Shown: positions 12,311 through 60,439 of the stretch, one piece after another
Layout of the letters: every line of letters starts with the position of its first letter
Position numbering within the stretch: the stretch's first letter is position 1
DNA from: an uncultured delta proteobacterium
GTDB taxonomy: Bacteria; Desulfobacterota; Syntrophia; Syntrophales; UBA2185
Length of the DNA stretch: 64,000 nt
Reading direction: 5' to 3'
NCBI GenBank assembly: GCA_963729715.1
Contig: CAVSPA010000005.1
Coordinates: forward strand, 687,607 to 751,606
Notes under the pieces: generated by a model
The model's database searches: none
Seen by the model: only the letters and a program-made list of their open reading frames with translations
Told to the model about the DNA's origin: nothing
Position numbers and translations under genes: made by a program

Positions 12311-12881
12311 ATGGAACAACCGCTCAAGATAGTATATCGCAATATACTGCCGGCGCATAAAGATGTCATTGATCCGATAATGAGGGAGCACGCCGTTAAA
12401 CTGGACAAGTACTTTCCCAAGATAATCAGTTGTCGTGGTGGAAAAGACACAAGGGCGGCATCACGTAGGCGATCTCTACAGAACAACCATAACGCTTACA
12501 GTGCCGCATAGAGAGATCGTCGTGAATCGCGAGCATCCCCGTAACCACAGTCACGAAGACATGGTTGTTACGGTAGGCCATGTTTTCGACGATGCGGCGC
12601 GGCAACTTGAAGAATATGCACGGATGCGGGGGAAGGAGCTAAAAGACCACGATCTACTGCCTCACGGTGTGATCCATAAACTCTACCTTAAGGATGGTTA
12701 TGGATTTATACAAGGATCAGGCGATAGGGAAATTTACTTTCACCGGAACAGTGTGATCGACGGGTTCGATAACCTTGAGATCGGGACAGCGGTCCGTTTT
12801 GAGGAGGAGGAAGAGAAGAAAGGCCCGCAGGACAGCACCGTCAAGATTGTGAGGAAGGAGCACACCCATCACAGGCATTAA
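12311..12881 (+). CDS. HPF/RaiA ribosome-associated protein fused to a cold-shock domain, frameshifted near 12433
   Basis: MEQPLKIVYRN…KLDKYFPKIISCR continues in another frame as VVEK…FDDAARQL; CSD motif GYGFI…EIYFHRNSV. Confidence 0.85.
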
Positions 12882-13409: not shown

Positions 13410-13439
13410 TTGACACACCCACCCCCTTTCTTTTATGCT
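13410..13439 (+). promoter_or_regulatory. Putative sigma-70 promoter of the VWA-HEAT-AAA gene
   Basis: TTGACA-N18-TATGCT. Confidence 0.45.
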
Positions 13440-13477: not shown

Positions 13478-16400
13478 TTGAACGCAACTACAGTTATGCA
13501 GGGTAAATCAGAAACAGAAGAAGGCCGTTTGCGGATCAAATGTATAGAAGAACTGGTTCGCCGAAGGGGGCTGGACGAAGGGGAAGCGCTGGTAATCGAC
13601 GAACGCCTGCTCGCACTGATGCAGATTATCTCCACGGGACTGGGAGATGATATTCATCTGAAAATTGCCCCCGGCAGCAACTGGAGATATAACAGTGAAA
13701 CAAACGAAATGGTATTTCCCGTAGGATTGCTGTTGTCCTCTTCGGCAGAAGAGGTCATCGCCTTTTGCGCCCATGAGGCGGGACACAGGCAAATATCCCG
13801 CAGGAGCGTGAGAAAGGCGGTGTTCAAGACATTTTCCGCGACTGAATCCACCAGGCTTCTCTTGACTGCCTTTGAAGACAGCCGTGTAGATAACTGGCTG
13901 ACAAGCGTCTTTGCGGGAATAAAACACTACCTGGATATTGCCTATGACGAGATGCTCCCCCGTGATTTGTCGAGATCGTCGTACGTGGATTATCTGAAGG
14001 GTGAAATCTCCAAGAGGGCGAGTACCTGCTGCCATCCGTATCTCCTTTACCCACATCTCGAATACCTTCTCGGAATGCGCTATTACTGGCTGTATGGCCG
14101 CCTTCCTACGCAGTTGATGAATCCGGAAGTAGGCGCTGCCCTTGCCCGGACACACGGGGATTTTGCGGAGATCTTCAATCACTATCCTCCCGGGCGGGTC
14201 TCGGAGAATGAGAATCTGAGATTTGCGGAAGAAACGGCCTTGATGGTGAGGGACAAAATCCTTCCGGAGTATGAAAACCTTGTCCTGCTCGCGATTACAA
14301 AGCTCGCAGAGGCCATAAAGGACGGCCAGCTCCAGGTCAAGGACAAGAAATGCGCCCCGGAGGATTTGAGCCCGGATGAGATCGAGGAAGCGGCGAGAAA
14401 ATTATTAGAGCTAAAAGCGAGGGAGCTGGCGGACAAGTTATCTCCCAAGACGGAAAAGCGCACCGGGAAAACAGAGGAATACAGAAAGGAAACCCCTGAA
14501 GAAACAGCTCCGCGCAGAGCGGGCGGAAAATCCGCCGGGGAAAGAACGGCGCCGTTGCCCACAGAGACTCTCCGCGACCTCATCAAGAAGCAGCGAAGGA
14601 TAGACCGCGACGAGAACACAAAGATAGGTGAGTACGAAAAAGTCTTCAGGCTGATCTCGAATCTGGTCCAGGCCTTAAGCGGGGTTTTGGAAAATCACTT
14701 CGCGAAAAATAAGAGGCCTTCCTTCAAAGGCTATTTCCCTTCCGGCCAGAAGCCTGATCTGCGGAGGGCCATGGAGCTTTCCCGGAAATTGAGCGAGGGT
14801 ATTCCCGTGCAGGATAGGGATCTCAAGGTCTTCTTGAAGAGGAGGCTTCCAACACAGAGGGACCACAAAATCATCCTCGCGCTCGATGAATCGGGTTCCA
14901 TGGACGAACCCAAGAGGACATCCGCCCTCGCAGGTCTTCTCATCTTTATGGAGGCCCTCGATCATATCGGCATCGACTACGGGGTGATAGGATTTTCCGA
15001 TAGCCCCATTATGCACAAGGAGTTGGGCGTGAAACTGGATAACGCAGGCCGGAGGGTATTGTTCGACGAGGTCTCCCTGTGCATACCCGGAGGCTCCACC
15101 GCAGATGCAGATGCGCTCCAGTTGGCGACGAATATATTAAAGGATCAACCCGAAGATTCATCAAGGTGGATCATCATGGTGACGGATGGAGAAGGAAACG
15201 TGAATACAACCGGTAAGACGTTTGTCGAGCTTCAGAAGGAGGCTCTCGATCAAAAGATAGAGGTGCTCGGTGTGGGTCTGGGAGAGGAGGTAACGGAGGT
15301 CATAAGGAGGTACGCAAGCGGCATGCAGATTAATGCGGTGGAAGAACTCCCGTCCGTCCTCTCGGGCATACTGGAGGAAAAACTTGTTACGCAGGATGCA
15401 TACTGGGACAGTTTTCTCACGCCCCGCCATGAGGCCCATATAGAGAGGGAAGATCCCGATGTGTCCCTGCCCCCGGATTTGTCGGTGCTCCTCGCGTCTC
15501 TCTATCTTTATCTGAAGGAAAACATTCCCGCTTTCAATGTTAGGCATCTGAAGAGGGCATCGGAGCTCCTAGGATTTTTGCTGAACCGGGGTTATCCGGG
15601 AAAAGAAGCGTTCGGAAGGAGCCTGAAATACGCCTTTGTTGATACACAGGAACAGTCCCAGCGGGTAAAAGAGCTCATCCTCGAAAGGATTGAAGACATG
15701 CGGAAGGTATTTCCGGACATCACCCGGGAAGACTTGCCGCAGGAATTTCACCAAGCGTCTTCACGGGCGGACGTTCCCGTGTCTGCGATCCCGCATGACC
15801 TGGCTTCTGTCCTGGATATTTTAATGAAGAACAGCGCTCATCCTCGGATCGAAAAGGCCCTTTCATTGTTGAAGGCGCTCATCAGTTCCTCTGACACGGC
15901 ATTCGTGAGCATCCCCGGAATGGAAGCGGCGTTCCGGGTTATTGACGACGAACTTCTAAAGGAAATAGCCATAGAGGAGATCGAAAAAAAATTAGAGGAT
16001 AAGAGCTGGGCTGTCCGCCAGCCCGCAGCCTTAGCCCTGGGCCGGGTTTATCTCGCGCTCGTCAAGCAAGGAAAAGATGTCGACTTGAGTCTGCTTGAGG
16101 AAATGCTGAAGGATGAAGATCCGTCCGTCTGCCGCGCCGCCGCACAGGCCCTCAGTCGGATCTGGTATCACTATCATGGGAAGGGAAAAATAACGCTGGG
16201 GGCATTGGAGCGCCGACTGGGAGATGAAAACTGGGCCGTCCGCCAGGCTGCGGCAAGGGCTCTCGGAAGGATATATCCTCTACTTATGGAACAAGGACTG
16301 AATGTGGACATCAGCAAATTGGAAGGAGGGTTGTGGAATAAAAACTGGTTTGTCCGCCAGGCCGAGGCCGAGGCCTTGGGGGAGACCTACGGCGCTCTCA

Positions 16401-18910
16401 TCAGGAAGGGAATAGAGATCAACCTCGAGGGTCTGGAAGAAAGATTGAAAGATAAAAATATACTGACCCGTCAAACCGCCGCCCTGGCCCTAGGACAGGT
16501 CTATCCGCCCCTCATGAAGCGAGGGCGAGATGTTAATTTGGGAAAATTGGAAGAAAGGCTCGACAATGATGACTGGTCGGTCCGCCAGGCCGCGGCCGTG
16601 GCCTTAGGCCGGATATGGTTCCACGACTATTACCATGGCAAGATGGCTTTGACAGATTTGGAAAAGAGACTCGAAGACCCAAGCTGGCCTGTCCGCCAGG
16701 CTGCATGCCAGACCCTGGGGCAGATATACCCGACGCTTGTCGGACGGGGAAAGAATGTAAACTTAGGGAAATTGGAAGACAGGTTAAGAGACGCAGACGT
16801 GGATAGATCCGTCTGCCAAGCTGCAGCGCAGGCCCTGGGCCGGATCTGGCCTCGCAGCTATCATCGAAAGAAGATTACCTTAAAAGAGTTGGAGGAAAGG
16901 CTGAAGGATGAAAACTGGTTTGTACACCAGGCTGCCGCACTCGCCCTAGTCCGTATACAACATGTCCTTGTCAAACGGGGGAATGACGCCGAATTAGACA
17001 AACTGGATAAGAGATTGAAGGATAAGATCTGGTCGGTCCGCCAGGCGGCGGCACGGGCGTCAATAGAAATCTTTGCGGATATAATCTCGGGCAAGAAGAA
17101 GGAGTTTGGGAAGGCGCTTGCTTCCTTCAATGAGATGCTGAGTAAACCTATGGGAAGTGCCATAGCAGGCACACATGCGGGCCAGGTGCAGATCGGTGAA
17201 AAATCTTTAACAGTGGGAGATCTGCTCTTAGACAGGGCGGAACTGAGAGACGATATACCCGCCTGCGTAATGACGGAATCCGGCTATCACATGTTAGAGA
17301 CGTTGTGCATGGGCTACCTCTTGAGACACTCCGTCCTGCTCCTGGGCCCTACGTCAACAGGGAAGAGCTTCTTGATCAAATGGTTCGCGAGTGTGTTGGG
17401 CTATGAGCACCTCTCATATTCCATCAACCCCTACACCTCCAAGTTTGAGATAATCGGCGGCATTAAACCAGACAAGGAAGGCAGATTTGTCTGGCAGGAC
17501 GGCATTCTTCTGAATGCGGCGCGAGACGGCCTGTGGCTCACTCTCGAAGAGATAAACCTCGCGTCTTCCGAAGTGGTCGAGATAATGAACGACTATCTCA
17601 TTACGGGACGGGTATCCTACTCGGCAAACGGGGAGCAGAAAGAATTGTATCCCCATCCCACTTTCAGACTCTTTGCCACAGGGAACCCGGAAAGTTACAG
17701 CCAGAGGCAGAAACTCTCCGAGGTATTTCTTTCCAGGTTCAAAATACTCTATCAAAAAGAACTTTCGGAAGAGGAACTGACCCAGGTATTAAGTTCTTTA
17801 TTCGAGATTACTTCCGCTGCGGCCCTTCCCATTGCGAGATTTCACACTACCCTGCAGAACCAGGCGGACAGCCGCATCATCGGCAAGACGGAAAAAGACC
17901 CGTATATATTTACCCTCAGGGACATAATAAGACTGGGGAGGAGGTTGGAGCCAGTCTTGGCGAACAGATCAGCCGACAAGGAATATTTCAAAAAGTTTTT
18001 CCTCGAGTTGTTCAGCGTTTATATAGGCAGATTGAGGGACAGCTCCGAAAGAGAGGCAGTGGTCAGTCTATTGGATGCATATTTTGGTTTCCGGGCCGAG
18101 GGCTTGGACCTGAAAGAAGTGCTCATATCCGCTTCTCTGGACATGGATTCCCTACTTGCAGACTTGACATCCTCAAAGGGAGATGAACTGATTCCCCGAC
18201 ATGACGCAGCGATTGTACCCACACCGACCCAGAGGATAACTCTCTATCTAATCCTCACGGCCCTGATAAATAACGAACCTCTTCTTGTGGCAGGAAATCC
18301 TGCCTCAGGAAAGACCACCCTCATCAGATATCTGGCCGGTCAAAAAGAGACGAACCTCTACTATGTAAACCTCTCCTCAGATACGGGCCTGGAAGAGCTT
18401 CTGGGCGGTTATATTCAAGACAAAAAGGGGAAATGGCATTACAGGAAGGGCCTACTGTTCATGGCCATGGAAAAAGGAAGCTGGCTCCTCATAGACGAAG
18501 CGAATCTGTCCCCCCTGTCCGAGTATTTAAACACACTCCTTGACTTTGGCTACGTCATTGATGGAGAGGAAAATGTCTGTTACGCCCATCCTAATTTCAG
18601 GATATTTCTCTCGATGAATCCTCCTTCCGTGCATCAATCGCGTAACCTGCTCTCACCTGCGTTGAGATCAAGATTTACAGAGGTGTGGGTTGAGGAGTTG
18701 ACCAATTTAGGAGAACTCGCTGGTTTAGTAGATACCTGGAGCAAGGCTCACGAGGAGGCGCAAACATCTCACAAAAAAAGTAGGGGGAAAAAGAGGAAAG
18801 ATGCGCGTGATGAAAAAATCTCCGATGATAAAAAACCGGCAAAAACCGATGCCAAGAAGGAGGATGAGGGATTTGCATCCGACAAGCGATTTACCCATTA
18901 TTCGACGTGA
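13478..18910 (+). CDS. Giant multidomain protein: HExxH domain - VWA - HEAT repeats - tandem AAA+ (MoxR/midasin-like); start may be ATG 13496
   Basis: HEAGH (13772), DESGSM…T…DG MIDAS (14885), 10 HEAT repeats, Walker A GPTSTGKS (17345) and GNPASGKT (18293), Walker B LEEINL and IDEANL. Confidence 0.9.
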   Translation: MNATTVMQGKSETEEGRLRIKCIEELVRRRGLDEGEALVIDERLLALMQIISTGLGDDIHLKIAPGSNWRYNSETNEMVFPVGLLLSSSAEEVIAFCAHEAGHRQISRRSVRKAVFKTFSATESTRLLLTAFEDSRVDNWLTSVFAGIKHYLDIAYDEMLPRDLSRSSYVDYLKGEISKRASTCCHPYLLYPHLEYLLGMRYYWLYGRLPTQLMNPEVGAALARTHGDFAEIFNHYPPGRVSENENLRFAEETALMVRDKILPEYENLVLLAITKLAEAIKDGQLQVKDKKCAPEDLSPDEIEEAARKLLELKARELADKLSPKTEKRTGKTEEYRKETPEETAPRRAGGKSAGERTAPLPTETLRDLIKKQRRIDRDENTKIGEYEKVFRLISNLVQALSGVLENHFAKNKRPSFKGYFPSGQKPDLRRAMELSRKLSEGIPVQDRDLKVFLKRRLPTQRDHKIILALDESGSMDEPKRTSALAGLLIFMEALDHIGIDYGVIGFSDSPIMHKELGVKLDNAGRRVLFDEVSLCIPGGSTADADALQLATNILKDQPEDSSRWIIMVTDGEGNVNTTGKTFVELQKEALDQKIEVLGVGLGEEVTEVIRRYASGMQINAVEELPSVLSGILEEKLVTQDAYWDSFLTPRHEAHIEREDPDVSLPPDLSVLLASLYLYLKENIPAFNVRHLKRASELLGFLLNRGYPGKEAFGRSLKYAFVDTQEQSQRVKELILERIEDMRKVFPDITREDLPQEFHQASSRADVPVSAIPHDLASVLDILMKNSAHPRIEKALSLLKALISSSDTAFVSIPGMEAAFRVIDDELLKEIAIEEIEKKLEDKSWAVRQPAALALGRVYLALVKQGKDVDLSLLEEMLKDEDPSVCRAAAQALSRIWYHYHGKGKITLGALERRLGDENWAVRQAAARALGRIYPLLMEQGLNVDISKLEGGLWNKNWFVRQAEAEALGETYGALIRKGIEINLEGLEERLKDKNILTRQTAALALGQVYPPLMKRGRDVNLGKLEERLDNDDWSVRQAAAVALGRIWFHDYYHGKMALTDLEKRLEDPSWPVRQAACQTLGQIYPTLVGRGKNVNLGKLEDRLRDADVDRSVCQAAAQALGRIWPRSYHRKKITLKELEERLKDENWFVHQAAALALVRIQHVLVKRGNDAELDKLDKRLKDKIWSVRQAAARASIEIFADIISGKKKEFGKALASFNEMLSKPMGSAIAGTHAGQVQIGEKSLTVGDLLLDRAELRDDIPACVMTESGYHMLETLCMGYLLRHSVLLLGPTSTGKSFLIKWFASVLGYEHLSYSINPYTSKFEIIGGIKPDKEGRFVWQDGILLNAARDGLWLTLEEINLASSEVVEIMNDYLITGRVSYSANGEQKELYPHPTFRLFATGNPESYSQRQKLSEVFLSRFKILYQKELSEEELTQVLSSLFEITSAAALPIARFHTTLQNQADSRIIGKTEKDPYIFTLRDIIRLGRRLEPVLANRSADKEYFKKFFLELFSVYIGRLRDSSEREAVVSLLDAYFGFRAEGLDLKEVLISASLDMDSLLADLTSSKGDELIPRHDAAIVPTPTQRITLYLILTALINNEPLLVAGNPASGKTTLIRYLAGQKETNLYYVNLSSDTGLEELLGGYIQDKKGKWHYRKGLLFMAMEKGSWLLIDEANLSPLSEYLNTLLDFGYVIDGEENVCYAHPNFRIFLSMNPPSVHQSRNLLSPALRSRFTEVWVEELTNLGELAGLVDTWSKAHEEAQTSHKKSRGKKRKDARDEKISDDKKPAKTDAKKEDEGFASDKRFTHYST
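15980..17075 (+). repeat. Ten intragenic HEAT-like repeats of about 37 aa
   Basis: Recurrent LE(E/K)RLxDxxWxVRQAAAxALG; also visible in DNA as GTCCGCCAGGC repeats. Confidence 0.85.
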
Positions 18911-19674
18911 GTGCCATGCTCCCCACAGGTGAAATAACCCGCCGCCTCTTTGATAGTGTGTCTTGTAGAGGGAATAACACCGTGATCGAAGAAGTCCGCA
19001 TCGGCCTCGGCTATGTGGGGGTACGGTTGGACGATCGGCGCATGGGGCTGGCGGCCGTTCCACTCCACGAGCTGCCAGCAGGCTGTTCCGTATGTCCCGA
19101 TGCCGGAAGAGTGGCCGGTTCAAAGGCGCTCTCTCTTCTCGGCAGCCTCATAGAAGGACAGAATCCGCTCTCGAGAGCCTTGGGTCTTGCTGCTGCGAAT
19201 GCCGTTCTTCATACAGAATTCGGTGAAGATGAAAGAAATTCCCTCTCGATCATGAAATTAACGCCTGAAGATCATGTAGCCATGGTCGGTCTCTTCACGC
19301 CCATGGTTCCGAAGATCGAAAGAACGGGGGCAAAACTCACCGTCATCGAAAGGAACCCCGCCCGCCTGGCCGTTCTCGATAAGAAAGATAGTGACAGGAT
19401 ATTGAAGGAATGTACTGTCGCGATTATTACGGCAACCGCACTTCTTAACGACACTCTCGAAGAAATTCTGAATGGCCTGGGTGATCCAAGGCACGTAGCC
19501 ATCCTCGGTCCCTCGACGCCCCTTCTGCCAGAAATTTTTCAGGGAACGCCTGTCCATCACCTGGGTGGGGCGATAGTCCGGGACACCGGGAAATGCATGC
19601 AGATCATCTCCGAAGGCGGAGGCACACCGGCGATGCGCCCCTACCTTAGGTCCATAAACCTGCTCGTTAAGTAA
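18907..19674 (+). CDS. DUF364 family Rossmann-like (putative heavy-metal chelation) protein
   Basis: ALGLAAANA, VAMVGLF, ITATALLNDT, LGPSTP; start overlaps the stop of the giant gene (GTGA). Confidence 0.8.
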   Translation: MSAMLPTGEITRRLFDSVSCRGNNTVIEEVRIGLGYVGVRLDDRRMGLAAVPLHELPAGCSVCPDAGRVAGSKALSLLGSLIEGQNPLSRALGLAAANAVLHTEFGEDERNSLSIMKLTPEDHVAMVGLFTPMVPKIERTGAKLTVIERNPARLAVLDKKDSDRILKECTVAIITATALLNDTLEEILNGLGDPRHVAILGPSTPLLPEIFQGTPVHHLGGAIVRDTGKCMQIISEGGGTPAMRPYLRSINLLVK

Positions 19675-21233: not shown

Positions 21234-21890
21234 TCACGCGGTTGCGGCAAAGGCATAGGCTGCAAAGAGACCGTCATGACTGAGACTGAGATCAATTGCC
21301 GCGGGCTCGCCACTTATACATAAGAATGGCGGTCCCAGACCATAGGGACTCTTCACCCGCCTGATTTCGATATTTTCCGGGGATTCATCATAATGTGTTG
21401 AGAGGTGCAGCTTGAGGACTTTACGCACAAAGGCTGATTCGTAATCGGGCGAAGCCTGTGAACCAGGGCTGATGCGGGCAACGTGCCAGACGAGTGCATC
21501 AATCTCATCGGATGCTGACGTAGTTCCGATGCAATGGACATAGTCGGAAGTTATCAAAACCTTGATCTCTATCCTGCCATACGGCGTATCAACGAATCCT
21601 GTAAGGGTATCACTTCCAGAAGAAAGTCGGACTGATTCTTCCGCACAATTTAGACTCACTTCATATAAGCGGGGGACGGAAGTGGCGGAAGGGTCAAGCT
21701 TCTTGACAAGCTTGTACGCCGTTTCCTTGCCTGCCCAGAGCGCCCACAAGACGGCGTCCTGGCTCTCTGCGCGGGATATCAATTCTTTTTCACGGGGTGT
21801 GAAGACGCGGTTAATGAATCGCGTATCCCGACTCTTCCCCATATTGTGTGGATCGGTCAGATCCACAATATCGTTGCCGATGCGAATCAA
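21234..21890 (-). CDS. 4'-phosphopantetheinyl transferase (AcpS-like, extended)
   Basis: IGNDIVDL, LWAGKETAYK, SLSHDG; start approximate. Confidence 0.85.
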   Translation of the reverse strand: MIRIGNDIVDLTDPHNMGKSRDTRFINRVFTPREKELISRAESQDAVLWALWAGKETAYKLVKKLDPSATSVPRLYEVSLNCAEESVRLSSGSDTLTGFVDTPYGRIEIKVLITSDYVHCIGTTSASDEIDALVWHVARISPGSQASPDYESAFVRKVLKLHLSTHYDESPENIEIRRVKSPYGLGPPFLCISGEPAAIDLSLSHDGLFAAYAFAATA

Positions 21891-22620
21891 AATAACCTTT
21901 CTCCATTTGTGCCATATGTTTGATGATCTGCTCTGCATAGCGGCGCTGAGCCCTGAGTCCGTTTTCTTGTATCGGTTCGGGCTCAAAGACTTCTACGTTC
22001 ACCGCAAAACGCTCGCGAAATCTGGGAATGAAGCCGTAAGAATGCTGGCTGTCACCTCGCAGATAGATACACATTACCTTGCAGGTTTCAAAATCCTTGA
22101 TGAACCGGCCCACACCGTAGGAAAAACTCTCGGTATTAACGCGGCCTGTCCGGGAGCGCCCTCCTTCCGGAAAAATCAGCAATGGCTGTTTCCATTCGAG
22201 AAGGGATGTGCATTTATCAAGGGTGTTTTTCATCTCTTCACGATTGCCGCCCCTGTTGATGGGGACGCACTTGGCGAGGTAACAAAGAACTGCCATGATG
22301 ATATTCCGCTGGAAATTGTTTCTCTCCGGCAAATTCCACGGCAGCTCACGGTAATGCAGTAAGTTACGCGTGAAGGAAAATGCCGCATATGTAATGATTA
22401 GGGAATCGATCATCGTGAGATGATTCGCGCAGATGATCCACGGCCCTTCGTAGTTCCTGAAATGACGTGCGCATTCCTCTCTGATCTTCAGTATATTCCT
22501 TACCCTGTAGCCCATGAGCCAGATGACTGAAAAATAAAGAGGGGCGATAACAAAAATGGCAATCCGACCAAGCGTGTATTGAATCAGCAGAGGGCCTTGG
22601 AGCATCAACTTCTTCTTCAT
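21811..22620 (-). CDS. PlsC-like lysophospholipid acyltransferase
   Basis: NHLTMID (HX4D) and IFPEGGRS motifs. Confidence 0.88.
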   Translation of the reverse strand: MKKKLMLQGPLLIQYTLGRIAIFVIAPLYFSVIWLMGYRVRNILKIREECARHFRNYEGPWIICANHLTMIDSLIITYAAFSFTRNLLHYRELPWNLPERNNFQRNIIMAVLCYLAKCVPINRGGNREEMKNTLDKCTSLLEWKQPLLIFPEGGRSRTGRVNTESFSYGVGRFIKDFETCKVMCIYLRGDSQHSYGFIPRFRERFAVNVEVFEPEPIQENGLRAQRRYAEQIIKHMAQMEKGYFDSHRQRYCGSDRSTQYGEESGYAIH

Positions 22621-22628
22621 GACTGACC

Positions 22629-22877
22629 TTATCCTAATTTGCTCTTGATGATAGCTACGGCATCTCCGACTGTTCCGATCTTGTCGGCCTCGTCATCTTC
22701 GACGGTGATGCCGAATGTGTCTTCACACTTTATAATGACATCTACCAGCCTGGCGGAATTGACCTTCAGGTCGTTTAGAATGTGGGTATCCTTTGTCGCC
22801 TTATCCAGCAAGCTCGGGTCCTTTGTATATCCCCTGAGGATATCGATCATTTTGTTAAAGATTGTCTGTTCGTCCAT
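22629..22877 (-). CDS. Acyl carrier protein
   Basis: 82 aa, acidic, DLKVNSARLVDV Ppant serine, TVGDAV. Confidence 0.9.
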   Translation of the reverse strand: MDEQTIFNKMIDILRGYTKDPSLLDKATKDTHILNDLKVNSARLVDVIIKCEDTFGITVEDDEADKIGTVGDAVAIIKSKLG

Positions 22878-22880
22878 TTC

Positions 22881-24173
22881 TTAATAGCTCCTTTGATTAT
22901 TATTCCATCTCTTAAAGATGAGACAGCTGTTAACATCGCCGAAACCGAAACCGGCTTTGGCGATAATATTTAATTCAGGAAAGTCCATGCACTTCTGTGG
23001 CACCTTATCTCCAAATTCAGCAATATCGGGGTGTATGTCTTCACAATTGACGGAAGGATGGAGGAACCCCTTGTATAATTGCAGTACTACGGCAACGCTC
23101 TCTATGGCACCTGCTGCGCCTAAGCAATGCCCCACCATAGATTTTGTGGAATTGATATAGGGAAAATTAGCGGGGCCGCGTTCGAGGGCTGCCGACCAGT
23201 TCTTCACTTCATAAGGGTCGGCAAAGGTTGCCGTTAAGTGGCCGTTGATTGCGTCTATATGAGCCGGCATAATACGTGCGTCGGATATGGCGGCCTTGAT
23301 GCATCGTTTGACACCCTCGGGATTCGGCGCGGTTATGGAGCCGCCCATGCGATGCCCTCCGCAATTGACGGCGCCTCCGAGAACTTCAGCATAAATCCTC
23401 GCTCCACGTTCCAAGGCGGATTCCAGATCTTCAAGCACCAGAATTCCAGCGCCCGAGCCGGGGACAAAACCACATGCTGTGGCGCTCATCGGCCGTGAAG
23501 CAGTCTCCGGGTAATCATTGAATTTCTTGCAGATGACGCGCATGGCCTCGAATCCGGCCCAGATAAAGGGCGATTGGCCTTCGGAACCACCGGCTAAAAT
23601 CCTTTTTGCAAGACCGTTCCGTATTCTCCACATCCCTTCAACAATCGCTTCATTCCCCGTGCTGCAGGCAGATGAATTTGAAGTCACCTGGTTTCCGAGA
23701 GCCAAGATGCCCGCGATACTTGCGCTTGTGCCGCTATTCATGACCTGCTCTACTATCCGGCTTCCCATGCGGCGCACTTTCCCCCGGGAAACCATGGGCA
23801 CGAGAACGGTTGTAATTGTATCCATGCCGCCGATTCCGGAGCCGACGATCACGCCTGTATCCCAGTCCACAGTATCATCGTGAATGCCAGGCATCTTGAA
23901 ACCTGCGTCGGTCCATGCGTCTACGGCTGAAACAGCGGCGTATCCGATGTTTTCGTTCATCGACATCAGTGTATCTTCATTAAAATAACTCTTGCGGATA
24001 TCCTCAAAGTCCTGGGGGGCAGCGCCCACCTGGCAGGAAAAGTTCAATTCCTTAAGTTCAGGAAAAAACCGGATGCCGGAGCGCCCTTTCCGCAGGGCAT
24101 CTTCAAAATTAACCAAGCCATGGGCATTGGGGGCTGCTATCCCCATCCCTGTTATGACAACTCTTCTTTTCAA
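22881..24173 (-). CDS. Beta-ketoacyl-ACP synthase (FabF/FabB family)
   Basis: SSACSTG, HLTAT and GHCLGAAG form the Cys-His-His triad; GFGFG. Confidence 0.93.
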   Translation of the reverse strand: MKRRVVITGMGIAAPNAHGLVNFEDALRKGRSGIRFFPELKELNFSCQVGAAPQDFEDIRKSYFNEDTLMSMNENIGYAAVSAVDAWTDAGFKMPGIHDDTVDWDTGVIVGSGIGGMDTITTVLVPMVSRGKVRRMGSRIVEQVMNSGTSASIAGILALGNQVTSNSSACSTGNEAIVEGMWRIRNGLAKRILAGGSEGQSPFIWAGFEAMRVICKKFNDYPETASRPMSATACGFVPGSGAGILVLEDLESALERGARIYAEVLGGAVNCGGHRMGGSITAPNPEGVKRCIKAAISDARIMPAHIDAINGHLTATFADPYEVKNWSAALERGPANFPYINSTKSMVGHCLGAAGAIESVAVVLQLYKGFLHPSVNCEDIHPDIAEFGDKVPQKCMDFPELNIIAKAGFGFGDVNSCLIFKRWNNNQRSY

Positions 24174-24198
24174 CTAATATAAACCTCCATGAAAAACA

Positions 24199-24678
24199 TT
24201 AAGCGCCCTGGGAAGGTACTCCCCTCCCCGCGAGGACACCGAAACTCACGGCCTCGCCATTTTCCCTTTCCATGGTAACCTTCATTTTAAGGCTTCCCAT
24301 GCGGAAATAGACTTTGTGACCTTTAACGATCACGCGCTCACCGGGATGCACGACCCCCGTGAACTCCACCCCTTCGGCAAGGGTAAAAAGTGTAGTCAAT
24401 TTTTTTGCATCCTCCACCGTTGTATACGTCTGCCTCATGTGAAGATAAAGGCCGAAGGCAACAACCCCCGTCTGTGCCATGGCTTCAATGAGAATCACAC
24501 CCGGAGTAATCGGTTTGCCTGGGAAGTGTCCCTTATAAAAATACTCATCCTCACGAAACCGGTACGTGCCGACGATGTGCTCATCATCGAGCTCCAGGAT
24601 ATCGTCGATAAAGCGAAACGGATGCTGTTGGGGAACACTATTTAAAATTCGTGTCATCGTCTCCCGATCAGCCGCCAT
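24199..24678 (-). CDS. FabZ-like 3-hydroxyacyl-ACP dehydratase
   Basis: PFRFID, GHFPGKPITPGVILIEAMAQ (His/Glu). Confidence 0.9.
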   Translation of the reverse strand: MAADRETMTRILNSVPQQHPFRFIDDILELDDEHIVGTYRFREDEYFYKGHFPGKPITPGVILIEAMAQTGVVAFGLYLHMRQTYTTVEDAKKLTTLFTLAEGVEFTGVVHPGERVIVKGHKVYFRMGSLKMKVTMERENGEAVSFGVLAGRGVPSQGA

Positions 24679-25396
24679 AAAGCCCCCCGTTCACATGGAC
24701 GACACTTCCCGATATATAGGATCCCCCTGTTGCGAGAAAGGCCACGACCTCAGCCACTTCCTCGGGGCGTCCTATACGGCCCAGAGTAATGTTCTCGAGA
24801 ATCCTCTCTTGCACCTCTTCGGGGAGATTCTGTGTCATCTCTGTCTCGATGAATCCCGGGGCAACTGAATTGACGAGGATATTCCTCCCTGCCAATTCTT
24901 GCGACAGGGACTTCGTAAAGGCGTCGAGAGCTGCCTTTTCCATGGTGTAGGGGATCTGACCCGCATTGCCGGTATGTCCCACGACACTGGATATATTGAT
25001 GATGCGGCCTCCTCTCTGACGAAGCATGAAGAGGCGGATTATACGTTTGGTCAGGTACCATGTTCCGCGCATCAAGGCCCGCTGGGCATCGAATTGCTCG
25101 ATCTTCATGCTGACGATATCGGCGTTGAGAGATAGACCCGCATTGTTGACAAGGACATCCACGCGGCCCGCCTTCTCTTTTATCTTGTTGACCAGAAGTT
25201 CCACCTGATCGATATCCACCAGATCAGCCGGAAGAAGAAAGCCGTCACCTATCTCGGAGAGTAAAGCCCTTGCATGTTCCTCGCTGCTCCGGTAGTGAAT
25301 GCCCACCAGAAATCCTTCTCCGGACAGCGCCCGGCAACACGCCGCGCCTATTCCTTTTCCACCGCCTGTTACGATGGCAACAGGTTTCTCGCTCAT
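24668..25396 (-). CDS. FabG-like 3-oxoacyl-ACP reductase (SDR)
   Basis: TGGGKGIG, NNAG, YTMEK (YxxxK), APGFIETEM. Confidence 0.9.
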   Translation of the reverse strand: MSEKPVAIVTGGGKGIGAACCRALSGEGFLVGIHYRSSEEHARALLSEIGDGFLLPADLVDIDQVELLVNKIKEKAGRVDVLVNNAGLSLNADIVSMKIEQFDAQRALMRGTWYLTKRIIRLFMLRQRGGRIINISSVVGHTGNAGQIPYTMEKAALDAFTKSLSQELAGRNILVNSVAPGFIETEMTQNLPEEVQERILENITLGRIGRPEEVAEVVAFLATGGSYISGSVVHVNGGLYGG

Positions 25397-25989
25397 GAAC
25401 CGCTCCTCATGATGCCGCCTATCGAGTTTACCGATCGTTTCGGATAGTCGGGATAAATGATCCCTTTGAAAATGCCGGTGCGGGCATCTTTGATGTGGGC
25501 AATCAGTTCATTGTCAACAAAAACCTTTCCGTCTCCGATGGCAATGCTCGCCCCCGAGTCCTTCAACTGAGCGAAGCGCCTCACTTCAATATCGTAGCGG
25601 ACGCATTTGTTGTAGGGACGAATCTGGCCGCTGAAAGTAATCTCACCGCAACCGAGGGCCCTGCCGGCGCCCAAGGCGCCGCGCCAGACACAGTAAAAAC
25701 CGAGAAGCTGCCATACTGCATCAACGCAGAGGCAGCCCGGCTGAACCGGGTCCCCGGGCATATGGCACTGAAAATACCAGGCATCAAGTCTGATGTCCTG
25801 CTCTGCAACAATCGAACCCTGTCTGCCGACAGAACTAAACGACAGCACCCGATCTACCATGAGAAAGGGAGGCGCCGGCAGTCGCGCCTCAAAATTTACA
25901 GGCGGGTCATCTACCAGGGTCCCGTAGGAAAAAGCGATGAGCTCCTCCAGCCCGAAACTCTGGCATTCTCTGAAATCCGCATACTTCAT
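25393..25989 (-). CDS. fabA: 3-hydroxydecanoyl-ACP dehydratase/isomerase
   Basis: LPAPPFLMVDR, CHMPGDPVQPGCLCVDAVWQL (His/Asp), GRALG. Confidence 0.88.
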   Translation of the reverse strand: MKYADFRECQSFGLEELIAFSYGTLVDDPPVNFEARLPAPPFLMVDRVLSFSSVGRQGSIVAEQDIRLDAWYFQCHMPGDPVQPGCLCVDAVWQLLGFYCVWRGALGAGRALGCGEITFSGQIRPYNKCVRYDIEVRRFAQLKDSGASIAIGDGKVFVDNELIAHIKDARTGIFKGIIYPDYPKRSVNSIGGIMRSGS

Positions 25990-25991
25990 GA

Positions 25992-26984
25992 TTATTCCTC
26001 TACCTGTAAGACCATATGAACCCAGGACAACCCCGCCCCGACAATGGCAATGGCCACATGATCTCCCGGACGCAGGTCATTCCAGCGTTGGCTGAGAACA
26101 GCCGGCGCTCCGGAACAGCCGGTGTTGCCAAAAAATTCCACATTGTGCCAATGATTGTTTTCCGTAATTTGAGAACGCTCGCAGACAGTTTGCAGCATAC
26201 CCATATTGGCCTGATGACCGATAAAGATGAAGCGATTGCCATTGAGAGCATAGGTCTGCTGCAGCATGCGAATAGCATCTGTTGTCTTGCGAATGGCAAA
26301 GCCCTGCACGGAGTTCCCGTCCTGCTGGAAGTAACCCATACGGGGTATTCCCACCTTGTCCCAATCTGACGGTTTCGTTTCATAAGCGCAGGCCGTAAAG
26401 AATTTGTGCGACGGCACCGTGGCAGATACAATGGCTGCGGAACTGCCGTCACCGAACAGCACCGCAGATTTCCGATCGGCATAGTCCACGCAGCGAGTGA
26501 GATTTTCCGGATTGACCAGGAGTATAAAGGGCGGCAGTGCCTCGGGTCTCATGAGGCTGACAAAGTGCACCTGCGTACCAAAGCTGGTGCAGGCGGAATT
26601 CACGTCGAAGCAGGGTACGTCGATTCCGAGTTCCGCGGCTACGGTCGAGGCTTCCGCAGGGGAAACATTATCCGCTGCCGAGCTTCCGGAGATGACAAGC
26701 CCGATGTCTTCCTTCTTGAGACCGGCGCGCTCAATGGCCATCTGTGCGGCAGAGGCTCCGGTTTGCGCGTTATTGTAAAGGCCTGCTGCAAAAGCTTCTC
26801 TCGGGTCTCTGTTTCTTGTTTCCTTTATATAGTCCAAAGGGAGCACGGTCCGGCGTGTATGAATGCCGACCCTCTCCATGATCCATGCCTCATTTGTTCC
26901 GATATCCATCTCTTCCAAAAATCTATTGGTAATAACATTCTCCGGGTGGAAATGGCCCATACCGTGAAGATAGAGTGCACTCAT
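25992..26984 (-). CDS. FabH-like 3-oxoacyl-ACP synthase III
   Basis: SACTSF, HQAN and GNT form the Cys-His-Asn triad; LFGDG. Confidence 0.9.
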   Translation of the reverse strand: MSALYLHGMGHFHPENVITNRFLEEMDIGTNEAWIMERVGIHTRRTVLPLDYIKETRNRDPREAFAAGLYNNAQTGASAAQMAIERAGLKKEDIGLVISGSSAADNVSPAEASTVAAELGIDVPCFDVNSACTSFGTQVHFVSLMRPEALPPFILLVNPENLTRCVDYADRKSAVLFGDGSSAAIVSATVPSHKFFTACAYETKPSDWDKVGIPRMGYFQQDGNSVQGFAIRKTTDAIRMLQQTYALNGNRFIFIGHQANMGMLQTVCERSQITENNHWHNVEFFGNTGCSGAPAVLSQRWNDLRPGDHVAIAIVGAGLSWVHMVLQVEE

Positions 26985-28180
26985 ACAAGCTCCCTCCCGA
27001 TAATCATGTTCTGGACCTCCCGCACACCTTCGTAAATGTCGATGATGTGCGCATCTCTCGCCAACTTCGAAATCTCATATTCTGACATGAAACCATATCC
27101 GCCGTGGAGATGCAGGCCTTCGTTGGCGCAGAACAAAGCCGCCTCCGCGGCTGTATTCTTCGCGAGGGAGGCATACATGCCCCTGTCGTCCGCTTTTTCC
27201 TGAACCTTGAAAGCAGCTTTCATGAGCGCCATATCCGCGAGCTCGACTTTTTTCCACATTTGCACCAATGTCTCTCTTGCAACCGACAAATCACAGATCC
27301 TTTGTCCAAATTGCTTGCGCTCTCTTGTGTATTCCAGAGTGACATCCAATGCCCGTTTGGCGAGACCCACACCTATTGCCGCAACCATGGGACGCGCATA
27401 GTCAAGAACGTCGATGACATACTTGAAACCCTGTCTCCGATCACCGATTATCTGATTGTCATTGATGACTACGTCTTCAAAGGTGACAGCGGCCGTATTT
27501 GATAAACGCTGCCCCAGCTTGTCTTCCGGTTTGCCAATGATGATCTTTCCCCCCGTGGGGAGAGTCATCTCCTTGCCCACTGCGAGATGCGGATCTGAAT
27601 TGGAGGGAAGCACCGGTGGGGCGGGAACTATTAAGCAGGCCATGAAGTTACCCGTCGGCTTCCCTACTTTACAAAAAACGGTAAATTGTGAGGCGTAGGA
27701 CGCATTGGTGATAAAGCACTTGCTGCCATTGAGGACATACGTTCCATCCGGGCTCTTCTTGATGAACGTCGTCATGGCGGAGTTGTCAGAACCGGCGCAC
27801 GGTTCCGTCAGACAGAAAGAAGCCATTATGGGATTCTCGACAAAGGGGCTTAAGAAAAGGGCCTTCTGTTCGTCCGTACCATGCTGGGCAATAACCGTGT
27901 TTGCCAGATCATTACACATTGCCGACGTGGAAATCCCCGTATCTCCGTAGGACAGTTCTTTGATGATCATGGCCGTAGAAACGGGATCAACCTCAAATCC
28001 CTTAACCGATTCAGGGATGCTCAGATTCAAAATTCCGAGGCCCCAGGCCTTCTGGATAATTTCCCAGGGGAAAATATGCTTCTTTTCCAGCTCCATAACC
28101 TGCGGTATGATTCCATACCTGACAAATCTCTTAACTGTATCCATATACATTTGCTGACTGCTGGTAAGATTAAAATCCAT
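26981..28180 (-). CDS. Acyl-CoA/acyl-ACP dehydrogenase
   Basis: FCLTEPCAGSD, NGSKCFITN, RKQFG, GGYGF…IYEG. Confidence 0.92.
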   Translation of the reverse strand: MDFNLTSSQQMYMDTVKRFVRYGIIPQVMELEKKHIFPWEIIQKAWGLGILNLSIPESVKGFEVDPVSTAMIIKELSYGDTGISTSAMCNDLANTVIAQHGTDEQKALFLSPFVENPIMASFCLTEPCAGSDNSAMTTFIKKSPDGTYVLNGSKCFITNASYASQFTVFCKVGKPTGNFMACLIVPAPPVLPSNSDPHLAVGKEMTLPTGGKIIIGKPEDKLGQRLSNTAAVTFEDVVINDNQIIGDRRQGFKYVIDVLDYARPMVAAIGVGLAKRALDVTLEYTRERKQFGQRICDLSVARETLVQMWKKVELADMALMKAAFKVQEKADDRGMYASLAKNTAAEAALFCANEGLHLHGGYGFMSEYEISKLARDAHIIDIYEGVREVQNMIIGRELV

Positions 28181-28227
28181 TACTGAAATCCTTCGTGCAA
28201 ATTTTTGCCATAAACTTCTAAGCACAC

Positions 28228-39510: not shown

Positions 39511-40521
39511 TCAGGGAGATATTGCATCCCGAATAATTCGTTCAATTGCTTGGACGAAGCTTAAACCCGAGCGCTCTATGGCAGCATAAAATCCCCCGTC
39601 CGGAGACAGGCACGGATTTGTATTCACTTCCAGGACCCACGGCTTTCCTGTACCGTCGACACGAAAATCCACCCTCGCGTATCCCCGCAGGCCAAACACC
39701 TGCCAGCACTGAAGCGCCAGGTCCTCCAAGCGGACAAGCAAGGAAGCATCCTCATCCGGAAAGTCAAAACACCGCGGCGTGTGACGATATTCAAAAGAGT
39801 CTTCGACCCATTTGGAAAGGTAGTCGACTACCCTGACCTTATCCGGCGGGAAATCGTCAAAGCGAATCTCAGCCGGGGGAAGGACATGCGGCCCTCCAGC
39901 TCCCGCGAGGAGGGAGAGATTAAATTCCCTTCCCTCAATGAACGCTTCCGTAAAACACGCCATGCCGAGCTGCTTCTGCCGGTATGTAGTTGCTTCGCGG
40001 AGCTGATTATGATCTCTTACATGAATGATGGAATCGCTCCCGAGCCAGGTAGAGGCGTGTTCCCAAACAGCCTTGATGATATATGTGCCTTCGACAAAAT
40101 GTCCGCTGAGATTCTCATGGGGCATAAATAATGGAGGTGTGGCGATGCCCGCTGCATTCAAGATCTTTTTGGCGAGAACCTTGTTAGACGTGAGAAACGT
40201 AGCCTCCGTACTTGCGCCTGTGTAAGGGATTCTTAAGAAGTCCAGAACGGACGGGGCTATGTGGATCAGGCTCCCCTGTCCCGCCATTGTTTCCACAATA
40301 TTGAAAACGAACGCAGGCCGGAGGTCCCGCAGCATGTCGATTATGCGCGCGCAATTCAACGAGAAGGGCATGGTGATGGGTTGGTATCCGAGTTCCGAAA
40401 GGGCAGAGGACACTACTGCGGCCTGGACGAGGGCGTCCTTTTCATCCATGCCGGCATCATCCGGCACATCGCTGTGCAGCACGACTGCTTTCATGAACTG
40501 TCTGTCAGCGTGGTGACTCAT
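39511..40521 (-). CDS. D-Ala-D-Ala-ligase-like ATP-grasp protein
   Basis: PYTGAS, EAFIEGREF, GYARVDFR, EVNTNP. Confidence 0.88.
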   Translation of the reverse strand: MSHHADRQFMKAVVLHSDVPDDAGMDEKDALVQAAVVSSALSELGYQPITMPFSLNCARIIDMLRDLRPAFVFNIVETMAGQGSLIHIAPSVLDFLRIPYTGASTEATFLTSNKVLAKKILNAAGIATPPLFMPHENLSGHFVEGTYIIKAVWEHASTWLGSDSIIHVRDHNQLREATTYRQKQLGMACFTEAFIEGREFNLSLLAGAGGPHVLPPAEIRFDDFPPDKVRVVDYLSKWVEDSFEYRHTPRCFDFPDEDASLLVRLEDLALQCWQVFGLRGYARVDFRVDGTGKPWVLEVNTNPCLSPDGGFYAAIERSGLSFVQAIERIIRDAISP

Positions 40522-41572
40522 CGCCGTTGCGACAGGTGAGACAGGTGTGGTAATACCGTGACAGGGCGGGTTCAGCAGTTGGGCAAACAGTATACGTGTC
40601 CTGGATGCGTTTTCGCGCCGATTCCATGATCATGTTGATGAGTTCATGGTAGGTGATGCCGGCAAGCTTGCAGATTATAGGGAGATCCGAATGGTCCGGA
40701 TGCAGGCCCGCCAATGGGTTAATTTCTAGGAAATGCGGCAATCCCTTTTTGTCGGCGCGGATGTCGACCCTGCCTGCGTCTTTGCAGCCGAGTCCCCGCC
40801 ACGCGGCAAGGGCTGTTTCCTGAACAGCCTGGGCCATGGGGTCATCGGCCAGCCGGTATTCCACAAGCTCCTCACAGTTCTCTTTGTTTATGTAGGAATA
40901 GACGCCTTTCTCCGCATCGTCTTTAAGGTGGACTTCCATGACCCCGAGTGCGACGGCATCCTTTCCCGTTCCGACTATACCCACAGTGAACTCCCGGCCG
41001 GGAAGAAAGCGCTCGACAAGAACGGGTTGCCGAAACGTAGTTAACAAAGACCGGCATACGAAGGAGAGCTGCTTTCGGGAAGTTATCTTCGACTGGGCGT
41101 TGATGCCCTTGCTTGTGCCTTCGGCCACGGGCTTCGCAAAAAGCGGAAATGGAAGCGAGATCTTGTCAATATCATGCTCTTCGTGCACAACTGCAAAATC
41201 AGGCGTCGGGATGCCGAGGTCGCGTATGACATGCTTGGTCATGCCTTTATGAAGGGTGAGCGAGAGGATAAGAGGATCGGAAAAGGTGTACGGGATGTTG
41301 TAGACGTCAAGGATGGCCGGCACCTGGGCTTCTCTCGCGAGTCCCTCGATACCTTCGGCGATGTTAAAGACTATGTCCCATCTGTCGCCGCATGCCAGCC
41401 TTTTGACAAGTGACTTGATGTTGCCTATGCGATCGGTGGTATAACCTAAATCCTGCAGCGTCTGTTCAATTGCCTCTATCGTATCAGCCCGGTCAAACTC
41501 TGCAGCCTCTTCTTCATTTAATCCCTCTGCTATATAATCATCGCGAAGGTCGTATGTAATTCCCGTCCTCAA
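40505..41572 (-). CDS. D-Ala-D-Ala-ligase-like ATP-grasp protein
   Basis: FNIAEG, KPVAEGTSKGI, LPGREF, GRVDIR, EINPLAG. Confidence 0.88.
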   Translation of the reverse strand: MRTGITYDLRDDYIAEGLNEEEAAEFDRADTIEAIEQTLQDLGYTTDRIGNIKSLVKRLACGDRWDIVFNIAEGIEGLAREAQVPAILDVYNIPYTFSDPLILSLTLHKGMTKHVIRDLGIPTPDFAVVHEEHDIDKISLPFPLFAKPVAEGTSKGINAQSKITSRKQLSFVCRSLLTTFRQPVLVERFLPGREFTVGIVGTGKDAVALGVMEVHLKDDAEKGVYSYINKENCEELVEYRLADDPMAQAVQETALAAWRGLGCKDAGRVDIRADKKGLPHFLEINPLAGLHPDHSDLPIICKLAGITYHELINMIMESARKRIQDTYTVCPTAEPALSRYYHTCLTCRNGDESPR

Positions 41573-42893: not shown

Positions 42894-43088
42894 TCTGTTA
42901 TCCTCCTCCGTATCCAGGGATGATAAAAAAAATTCCCCTTTCTTTTTTTTGTGTAATATATTTTTTTCTGTACGCTGTTTAGAAATGCTTGTCAATATTT
43001 TTTTCATTTTTTTTGAAAAAAAATTATTTTTCTTGAAAGAAGAAAAATCAAACTGTAAAATGCAGAAAAAATTTTTCGACAGGAGCAT

Positions 43089-43871
43089 ATGCCTGAACTT
43101 CCCGAAGTAGAAACTCTGTGCCGACAATTGAGGCGAGTGATTCAAGATAGAGAGATCCTCAGTGTGGAGATCCTTGATCACAGGCTGGGAGCCTTGGGGG
43201 AACTTACGGGAAGGAAGATCACTGCCGTTACTCGTCAGGGCAAGGCCGTGGAGATGAAGCTTGATAACGATGCGCGGCTTCTTCTCCATCTTCGGATGAC
43301 GGGCAAGATGCAGTGGCAGAGCGCGTCTCCGGAGATTCCTCCTCACACCCGTTTCATAATTTCATTTTCTCACGGTAGGCTTTTTTGTGTCGACACTCGG
43401 CGTTTTGCGACGCTTGTGATCACGGCGGACGGAAGCTCGCAAGCTTTCGTGAAGAACCCGCTGCTTGATTTCCGGATCGAAGAACTGCATAAGATCGCGC
43501 GTGTGAAGAAACTTCCCGTGAAATCATTCCTGATGGATCAGCGATGGATTGCCGGTATCGGAAACATATATGCCTGTGAGATCCTCCATGAAGTATCCAT
43601 CAATCCCTGGCGGCCCGTATGCGGAGTGTCCTTGCGGGAGTGGAGGAAGATTGAGAGAGCGACGACGAAGATCCTTGAGAAAGCCATCAGCTGCCGGGGC
43701 ACAACTGTATCGGATTGGCGTGATCTGTCCGGCCAAAAAGGCGAGTATCAGGATGAATTGAAAGTTTATGACCGTGAAGGACTACCCTGCTTTCGCTGTC
43801 GTGGCACTATTCATCGGTTGCGCCTGAGCGGCAGGGGGACATATTTCTGTCCCTCCTGCCAGAAAAGATAG
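43089..43871 (+). CDS. mutM: Formamidopyrimidine-DNA glycosylase
   Basis: MPELPEVE, HLRMTG, GIGNIY, C-terminal CxxC…CxxC zinc finger. Confidence 0.95.
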   Translation: MPELPEVETLCRQLRRVIQDREILSVEILDHRLGALGELTGRKITAVTRQGKAVEMKLDNDARLLLHLRMTGKMQWQSASPEIPPHTRFIISFSHGRLFCVDTRRFATLVITADGSSQAFVKNPLLDFRIEELHKIARVKKLPVKSFLMDQRWIAGIGNIYACEILHEVSINPWRPVCGVSLREWRKIERATTKILEKAISCRGTTVSDWRDLSGQKGEYQDELKVYDREGLPCFRCRGTIHRLRLSGRGTYFCPSCQKR

Positions 43872-55924: not shown

Positions 55925-55991
55925 TAATTAGAGTTAAATCTCTTGTGATAATGGGGAGTTAGGGATGAAGTCCTGATTCCCCATTTTTATT

Positions 55992-56011: not shown

Positions 56012-56038
56012 TTTTTGCATTATCAACTAAAATGATAT

Positions 56039-60420: not shown

Positions 60421-60439
60421 ACTCTTTATCCTCTATCAA

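Follow-up and report, generated by a model that had tools for sequence, protein, structure and literature searches.

In the NorQ-NorD, CbbQ-CbbO and CobS-CobT systems an ATPase is paired with a partner protein composed of an N-terminal domain, a linker, a finger and a MIDAS-bearing VWA domain, and the two genes are adjacent. These ATPases, about 270-380 aa long, have a single domain with a lid of its own and form homohexamers. Passages of two reports describe the NorD/CobT finger as entering the pore and the N-terminal domain as docking on the AAA small domain (PMC13036017; bioRxiv 10.64898/2026.10.09.757910). In midasin (Rea1/Mdn1) six AAA modules lie in a single chain, followed by a 1700-aa linker, a D/E-rich tract and a C-terminal VWA domain, and the AAA1 and AAA6 modules of Rea1 are without Walker B. 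An odd/even ancestral dimer was reportedly proposed by Garbarino and Gibbons in 2002. According to passages of PMC6286127, each large domain of Rea1 packs on the small domain of the preceding module, the last module is without a small domain, and the N-terminal domain takes the place of the AAA6 lid. Fusions of MoxR and vWA have already been noted in passages of PMC3495828, and the change from a MoxR with a single domain to a chain of six is placed early in eukaryotes in excerpts of PMC3495828 and PMC3791482, which name no intermediate. The MoxR-vWA ternary conflict systems, as outlined in part of Kaur et al. 2020 (PMC7159879), join MoxR and VWA with repeat domains and sometimes with peptidases.

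In the window, that is the whole stretch of 64,000 nucleotides that was analysed, one open frame (13478..18910; this and all other features are on the + strand) encodes 1810 aa from the TTG at 13478, in agreement with the sequence-only reading. The ATG at 13496 is the likelier start (1804 aa), since this is the length of the closest relatives and of P0002, the gene call of the collection itself. The gene is present as a single copy within the genome. Sequence analysis of the 1810-aa protein detected no membrane segment, and by hydropathy the family is cytoplasmic. Of 89 matches, 28 come from other proteins that span 95% or more of the ORF at 42-90% identity, and dN/dS against four relatives is 0.03-0.18 across every folded domain. 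This is a real conserved gene under purifying selection. A chimeric misassembly, the danger named in the earlier reading, is ruled out by the 28 covering relatives and the low dN/dS of the folded domains.

All the motifs quoted by that reading were found: HEAGH at 99-103, FEDSRVD at 132-138 and the MIDAS residues D470-S472-S474, T541 and D570, and in the AAA modules FVWQDGIL at 1337, HPTFRLFATGNP at 1393, FTLRD at 1478, HPNFRIFLSMNP at 1704 and LSPALRSRFTEVWV at 1725. A Pfam scan of the ORF returned VWA, HEAT, two AAA_5 stretches and one AAA_lid_7 (1433-1537), while NCBIfam and PADLOC gave weak matches only; no curated family in the Pfam, NCBIfam and PADLOC comparisons matches the architecture, as had been claimed. 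The protein has an AAA_5-type domain with Walker A/B, sensor 1 and arginine finger, and a VWA partner with an intact MIDAS, which is fused here and encoded by an adjacent gene in split relatives. In this protein an ATPase of the MoxR clade (clade 7) follows its VWA partner in one chain. The protein is a real and conserved variant of the MoxR-VWA machine, apparently one that is undescribed. No description of the family or of a permuted AAA lid was found in the open full-text literature, to which few subscription papers belong, and the main-text passages of a giant-gene preprint (10.1101/2023.11.21.568195) and of PMC11573180 do not describe the machine.

The two halves of the protein

The N-terminal HExxH domain (13595..14302; aa 40-275) is CobT-N-like and is a possible zinc peptidase. 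H99-E100-H103 and E133 form a gluzincin-like signature, in which HExxH is followed by a downstream Glu ligand, and H99, E100, H103, E133, D134 and R136 are each retained in 51/51 family sequences; among wider relatives HExxH is kept by 73 of 80. No match to this domain was obtained in Pfam, PHROG or PDB sequence searches. Its ESM Atlas neighbours include a CobT-N cluster (34% of members, score 0.96). It is followed by a charged flexible linker (14303..14629; aa 276-384) with 24 D/E and 26 K/R in 109 residues, for which dN/dS is 0.15-0.30, above that of the folded domains. The pre-VWA region (14630..14863; aa 385-462), here called finger because of its position, is 90-96% identical to four relatives. 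Pfam places CobT_C at 451-507, and the profile match to the midasin MIDAS chain 6qt8 begins inside the finger region (finger-VWA E 2.8e-13). The VWA domain (14864..15382; aa 463-635; Pfam VWA) has a complete MIDAS, with D470, S472, S474, T541 and D570 each present in 51/51.

The second half begins with a segment which we call lid2 (15461..15757; aa 662-760) and which resembles a displaced AAA small domain; the same segment opens the ATPase gene of split relatives. It carries FNVRHLKRA, which resembles the FTLRDIIR of the AAA1 lid, and R689, which by analogy with NorQ we take to occupy the sensor-2 position and which is present in 65 rows out of 68, with gaps in the remaining three. A profile built from 12 lids that contiguously follow even AAA domains matched lid2 with a hhalign probability of 94.4% (E 8.7e-8), against at most 1.1% for six control segments of the window. 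The match to the odd-lid profile reached only 26.5%, that to lid1 was weak (55%, E 1.2e-4) and those to midasin lids were also weak (best 32.8%, E 4.6e-4). The Pfam lid models did not match lid2. In single family sequences the even-lid HMM scored weakly (reported in 50/74, median 5.7 bits), so the assignment rests on the profile comparison. In the ESM Atlas the top rows for lid2 were CbbQ/NorQ C-terminal and dynein lid clusters, with scores below 0.8 that make them a lead only. As judged from the profiles, lid2 is an even-type AAA lid displaced ahead of the HEAT repeats.

A conserved helical connector (15770..15976; aa 765-833), found in fused and split forms and without a family match, leads to ten HEAT repeats of about 38 aa (15977..17113; aa 834-1212), the number that had been counted before. 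The spacer from lid2 to Walker A1 measures 587-606 aa in Syntrophales-type proteins and 525-754 aa in other members. The odd-type AAA1 large domain (17261..17767; aa 1262-1430) has K1296, E1357, E1358, N1403 and R1420 in 71/71 each, and is followed by its lid, lid1 (17768..18112; aa 1431-1545; AAA_lid_7, Pfam E 9.4e-14), with a sensor-2-like R1481 in 70/70. AAA2, an even-type large domain plus one helix (18200..18748; aa 1575-1757), has K1612, E1674, N1714 and R1732 in 71/71 each. The Walker, sensor-1 and arginine-finger residues are thus retained in both modules (70-71/71). AAA2 stops one helix past its last strand with no lid after it, at the point where split relatives terminate. Of the earlier statement that there are two AAA modules, the presence of both with intact motifs stands; the lack of a lid on AAA2 and the lid-like segment at 662-760 had been overlooked. 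At the level of sequence the ATPase part is a circularly permuted pair, lid2-HEAT-AAA1-lid1-AAA2.

Split genes, distribution and neighbourhood

A split two-gene form occurs in 9 of 39 GTDB loci and in 5/5 regions of a second family, f63, two of which repeat named loci; all parts lie in one frame in 18/39 GTDB loci, the rest being broken or cut by contig ends. The split genes abut or overlap. The first encodes HExxH-linker-finger-VWA and the second the ATPase (1150-1270 aa), which starts with the segment corresponding to window residues 662-760, so that the cut falls directly after the VWA domain. At the same VWA|lid2 border a serine-proline spacer is found in P0247 and P0036, both labelled Omnitrophota. 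Since split relatives are cut exactly at this border, the fusion is optional and the HEAT repeats are part of the ATPase. For the genes compared, this arrangement supports a two-gene origin of the parts, and three points of the sequence-only reading are to be revised. The single chain is not a fixed feature; the HEAT solenoid, taken for a linker between VWA and motor, belongs to the ATPase gene, where it is inserted between the displaced lid and AAA1; and the order described as reversed relative to midasin corresponds to the fusion of a two-gene cassette with the VWA partner upstream, other relatives having the midasin order.

The N-terminal 650 aa were matched in 19 of the 21 other genomes of the same family (one match being a 36-aa scrap at a contig end) and a midasin-lid model in 18/21, whereas elsewhere in the order 39 genomes, drawn from 23 families, gave no match to the N-terminal 650 aa. 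Named relatives of the protein carry the labels Syntrophales/Syntrophaceae, by which the family is taken to belong there. Among 300 other genomes of the phylum the midasin-lid model found five matches, all in family f63, and none in 14 controls. The gene is present in 5/5 f63 genomes. This family is probably Ca. Desulfofervidaceae, as loci L030 and L045 are so labelled and their cassettes are identical to those of two f63 genomes. In one archaeal class, whose records are labelled Halobacteriota, Methanomicrobia or Euryarchaeota, the gene is present in 20/24 genomes, the four without it being assemblies of 0.9-1.4 Mb; both fused and split forms occur there. Each of the three lineages is a well-supported clade in the tree, and the Omnitrophota protein P0055 is basal with a support of only 88/96. 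The near-universal retention in three unrelated anaerobic lineages, one of them archaeal, points to a core function.

The stop codon of the ORF is overlapped (GTGA) by a DUF4213/DUF364 gene (18907..19674; Pfam). This gene lies downstream in 15 of 16 Syntrophales-type loci, the sixteenth ending inside the gene, and no archaeal or f63 locus read had it next to the cassette. An Hsp20 gene is located upstream in six split archaeal loci and is unlinked in bacterial loci. No neighbour or client gene common across lineages was found in the GTDB loci and f63 regions, and no ribosomal genes were linked in the neighbourhoods read. A viral collection held no family member, with one weak unrelated match in viral contigs, and phages and plasmids gave weak VWA matches only; a phage origin was dropped on these grounds. 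The P0080 locus was not found in metagenome contigs.

Relation to midasin and to multi-AAA giants

The best solved relative of the AAA pair is midasin (379 bits, E 2e-112), compared with 27-37 bits for CbbQ, CobS and NorQ. Midasin is also the best solved relative of the finger-VWA region. These matches to solved midasins uphold the kinship of the AAA modules with midasin/MoxR that had been noticed before. Midasin-type modules and an AAA_lid_7 above cut-off are shared, AAA1-lid-AAA2 can be aligned without a break to adjacent modules of midasin, and the last module of Rea1, like AAA2 here, is without its own small domain. Nevertheless midasin has six AAA modules per chain where the window protein has two, and its VWA domain is C-terminal while that of the window protein is N-terminal or encoded by a separate gene. 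The long midasin linker is absent, its counterpart being 109 aa of mixed charge, and the window protein has an HExxH domain and a HEAT insert in addition. Both ATP sites are intact here, in contrast to AAA1 and AAA6 of Rea1. By its domain composition the window protein is not a midasin. That it is a fragment of a eukaryotic one is not supported, as the midasin D1-D6 clades (support 99-100 each) are free of prokaryotic rows and the modules are not nested in them. The idea that the HExxH domain is hidden inside the midasin linker was dropped, since 144 midasins gave no significant match to it, and a midasin N-terminal domain corresponding to the displaced lid found no profile support (0.1-0.4%).

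For lid1 the odd/even flavour agrees with that of midasin. Lid1 matches midasin lids 1, 3 and 5 at 95-96% and lids 2 and 4 at 7-12%, and prokaryotic even lids find their best match in midasin lid 4 (96.7%). The parity of midasin lids is not clean, as lid 2 is also matched by the prokaryotic odd-lid profile (92%) and lid 5 by the even-lid profile (90%).

The HExxH-VWA half as query gave 898 matches. Among the best 150 of these, which were examined, are many large proteins in which HExxH-VWA is preceded by one AAA pair or by three. In P0256 (4471 aa) the unit [lid, TPR-like solenoid, AAA, lid, AAA] occurs three times in a row, with HExxH-VWA after the third. Three copies of one lid sequence, which agree at 62-69 of 72 residues, lie at the N-terminus and immediately behind AAA2 and AAA4, and no such lid follows AAA6. 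An even-lid match upstream of the first AAA was found in 10 of 26 multi-AAA VWA proteins, and in 25/26 there was none after the last AAA; in P0314 the sixth lid is contiguous. The 16 proteins without an upstream match, P0314 and several partial sequences among them, showed no displaced lid. The giants P0256, P0282, P0371, P0392, P0314 and P0399 resemble the window family in the odd/even AAA pair and the HExxH-finger-VWA module and, in most cases, in the displaced lid. In these giants one or three pairs come with a VWA domain located behind the ring, the inserts are of other kinds (TPR, WD40), and signal-like or membrane segments are frequent, whereas the window family is cytoplasmic and stands alone. 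The named multi-AAA relatives are from Elusimicrobiota, Omnitrophota, Margulisbacteria and KSB1, with one record labelled Thermoproteota.

For a tree of AAA domains 67 rows were kept out of 104, the other 37 being dropped as long-branched, as near-duplicates or for speed. In it window AAA1 groups with the odd modules of P0256/P0251 (97/89), and the partners of AAA2 are even modules, those of P0256, P0251 and P0260 (100/99). The grouping of odd with odd and even with even within several six-module proteins indicates triplication or homogenisation more than once. A recent local duplication giving AAA1 and AAA2 is excluded, the clade uniting them within the family being rejected (p-AU 0.008). Tree and domain order identify the window ATPase as kin to the repeat unit of six-AAA bacterial proteins. 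In the same kind of test neither an all-even clade (p-AU 0.19) nor an all-midasin clade (p-AU 0.37) was rejected, and a descent of midasin from the window AAA pair is unproven by these trees.

Proposed ring and competing explanations

The best explanation of the whole, to which we give a probability of about 0.6, is that of a permuted AAA pair forming a trimeric ring that would remodel a client by means of its VWA domain. From the packing of Rea1, in which large domains sit on previous small domains, the ATPase can be read as encoding two packing units, lid2-AAA1, with the HEAT repeats looped out between, and lid1-AAA2. A flat ring of six AAA modules, AAA1 alternating with AAA2, would arise from three chains, and lid2 would pack on AAA1 of its own chain and complete AAA2 of the neighbouring chain. 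The trimer is favoured by the unit triplicated in the single chain of P0256, which now provides evidence for what had been a guess. The swapped lid is favoured by the match of lid2 to even lids, by the cut of split relatives at VWA|lid2 and by the lack of a lid after AAA6 of P0256. We regard such a lid-swapped trimeric six-AAA ring as rather probable. Since all the AAA catalytic residues are kept, all six of its sites could be active. The window protein would probably represent one-third of a midasin-like ring and, by analogy, probably works like midasin.

The HEAT solenoid would loop out as an arm, three per ring, and the varying insert at this position among relatives (HEAT, TPR) would suit a recognition arm. 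The VWA finger is proposed to enter the pore, as in NorQD and CobST, and ATP turnover would twist or pull the MIDAS-bound client against a second grip, either the N-terminal domain or the HEAT arm, with a remodelled cytoplasmic protein complex as the outcome. By comparison with these systems, VWA-driven remodelling of a client is somewhat favoured. Points counted against the ring reading are that a fused trimer would have three VWA arms for one pore, that the Pfam lids miss lid2, the HMM scores are weak and 16 of the 26 multi-AAA relatives showed no displaced lid, and that no client gene is linked across lineages.

If three chains form a midasin-like ring, the family would offer a small living model of how six-motor rings arose. 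Both ATP sites of its two-module unit are intact, the unit is related to the one repeated in six-module prokaryotic proteins, and the split-form ATPase is small enough for expression. With this family it can be tested whether the pair assembles as a trimer, whether lids are donated between chains and whether the midasin N-terminal domain corresponds to the displaced lid. A wider reading would make the protein the surviving two-module precursor of single-chain six-AAA motors, acting as a lid-swapped homotrimer. In this history the permuted unit would have been triplicated on several occasions to give bacterial six-AAA giants and on a single occasion to give eukaryotic midasin, in which the lack of a sixth small domain, its place taken by the N-terminal domain, would be a relic of the permutation. 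The unit would also have left the giant polyproteins of Omnitrophota-type bacteria and entered the core gene set of two anaerobic families of bacteria and of one class of archaea. Taken jointly these proposals are possible but doubtful.

The main rival of client remodelling is an ATP-dependent metalloprotease, kept open by the invariant HExxH and E133. It is compatible with the ring and differs in output: the VWA domain or the HEAT arms would catch a substrate, the ring would unfold it and the HExxH domain would cut it, or the latter may process giant polyproteins at module borders. In zincin chemistry a retained glutamate suggests catalysis, and E100 is retained along with the other motif residues in the family and with HExxH in most wider relatives, so the domain may be an active zinc peptidase. 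A MoxR-VWA-peptidase degradation system has been proposed for another clade in passages of PMC3495828, and the Hsp20 gene of the six split archaeal loci would suit such a role, but Hsp20 is unlinked in bacteria, the domain matches no peptidase family or solved structure, and in NorD/CobT the corresponding domain is said to dock on the AAA small domain in the passages cited above (PMC13036017; bioRxiv 10.64898/2026.10.09.757910). Proteolysis is on this balance unlikely. Another output, insertion of metal into one anaerobic metalloenzyme by a dedicated chaperone, like NorQD for nitric oxide reductase or CobST for cobalt chelation, would agree with the NorD/CobT layout of the partner and with the "putative heavy-metal chelation" DUF364 gene that overlaps the stop codon and follows the cassette in most Syntrophales-type loci. 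However, among the loci read this gene is no neighbour of the cassette in the archaea or in f63, the neighbourhoods have no metalloenzyme gene in common and the motors are far closer to midasin than to CbbQ, CobS and NorQ. Furthermore, scores are below the cut-offs for CobS/NorQ/CbbQ/GvpN (29.6 against 558.6 bits for TIGR01650, 26.5 against 266.8 for TIGR02640), and no client genes of these types are near the cassette in the loci read. We consider metal insertion quite improbable.

Two AAA modules per chain are also the usual layout of type II ATPases such as ClpA or p97 (passages of PMC6920918), in which case six chains would build two stacked rings, one of AAA1 and one of AAA2. This is very hard to reconcile with the head-to-tail triplication of the unit in six-AAA relatives, with the continuous alignment of AAA1-lid-AAA2 to adjacent midasin modules, which sit side by side, and with the position of lid2, 600 residues from AAA1 and more than 900 from AAA2. 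Similarly remote is a role in conflict, against phages or otherwise, as a ternary MoxR-VWA system. The weak matches to bpMoxR (Pfam) and to mads_8 (the only PADLOC match, without a passing stretch, among three window proteins scanned), the use of HEAT/TPR domains by such systems (passages of PMC7159879) and the relatives in giant proteins of host-associated phyla speak for it. Against it are the single copy, the fixed synteny among metabolic genes, the near-universal presence in three lineages, the low dN/dS (0.03-0.18) and the viral collection free of family members. In addition, third component and variable effectors are lacking and the inheritance is stable and core-like, unlike in the ternary systems. 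The defence role suggested earlier is consequently unsupported, given the fixed synteny, low dN/dS and weak PADLOC match.

The ORF ends in a lysine-rich tail (18749..18910) which is restricted to Syntrophales-type proteins, being absent from P0029, P0034 and P0056, and which is 60-72% identical to four relatives. Upstream of the gene, a candidate sigma-70 promoter, TTGACA-18-TATGCT (13410..13439), agrees at 10 of 12 positions and is the best in the region, though weak, with 7 such sites against 6.8 expected by chance.

Relatives with separate or fused components

In six archaeal loci in which the VWA protein and the ATPase are encoded by two genes (L032, L033, L035, L037, L039 and L041), the VWA gene is longer at its N-terminus by about 220 residues. 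A Pfam scan of these additional residues in the L033 copy gave no match. All six loci also carry an Hsp20 gene directly upstream. The loci L043 and L031 share their GTDB class with L033, so their record titles, Acidiferrales bacterium and Bathyarchaeia archaeon, are probably wrong.

Among the proteins compared here, the layout nearest to that of midasin belongs to the multi-AAA giant P0314 (MFC1753351.1; 4005 aa, labelled in its record as Thermoproteota archaeon), in which six contiguous AAA modules, each with its lid (the AAA small domain), are followed by HExxH-VWA.

In f63, a second bacterial family, which carries the cassette in split form, one particular gene lies directly 3' of the ATPase in only two of the five regions read (L045/L066 and L064). 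Its sequence appears to resemble a class II ribonucleotide reductase, and in L045 it overlaps the ATPase gene by 11 bases.

Genes around the fused gene in the window

Upstream of the fused gene, on the same forward strand, lies an HPF/RaiA-like and cold-shock-domain gene (12311-12881) which appears to be frameshifted near 12434, the frame opened by the ATG at 12311 shifting into the ORF 12435-12881. This ORF matches S30AE weakly and the cold-shock domain clearly.

On the reverse strand a fatty-acid-synthesis-like cluster (21234-28225) comprises ACPS, acyltransferase, ketosynthase-like, dehydratase-like and reductase genes. Several relatives are syntenic for this cluster. Also on this strand, a lysine-2,3-aminomutase-like radical SAM gene (41583-43346) adjoins two D-Ala-D-Ala-ligase-like genes (39511-41572).

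A probable conjugative element

A tRNA-Leu (55838-55924) opens the region 55838-64000. The DNA that follows it is low in GC (40-46%) and encodes a relaxase, TrwC, and a coupling protein, TrwB; the region probably marks the border of an integrated conjugative element.
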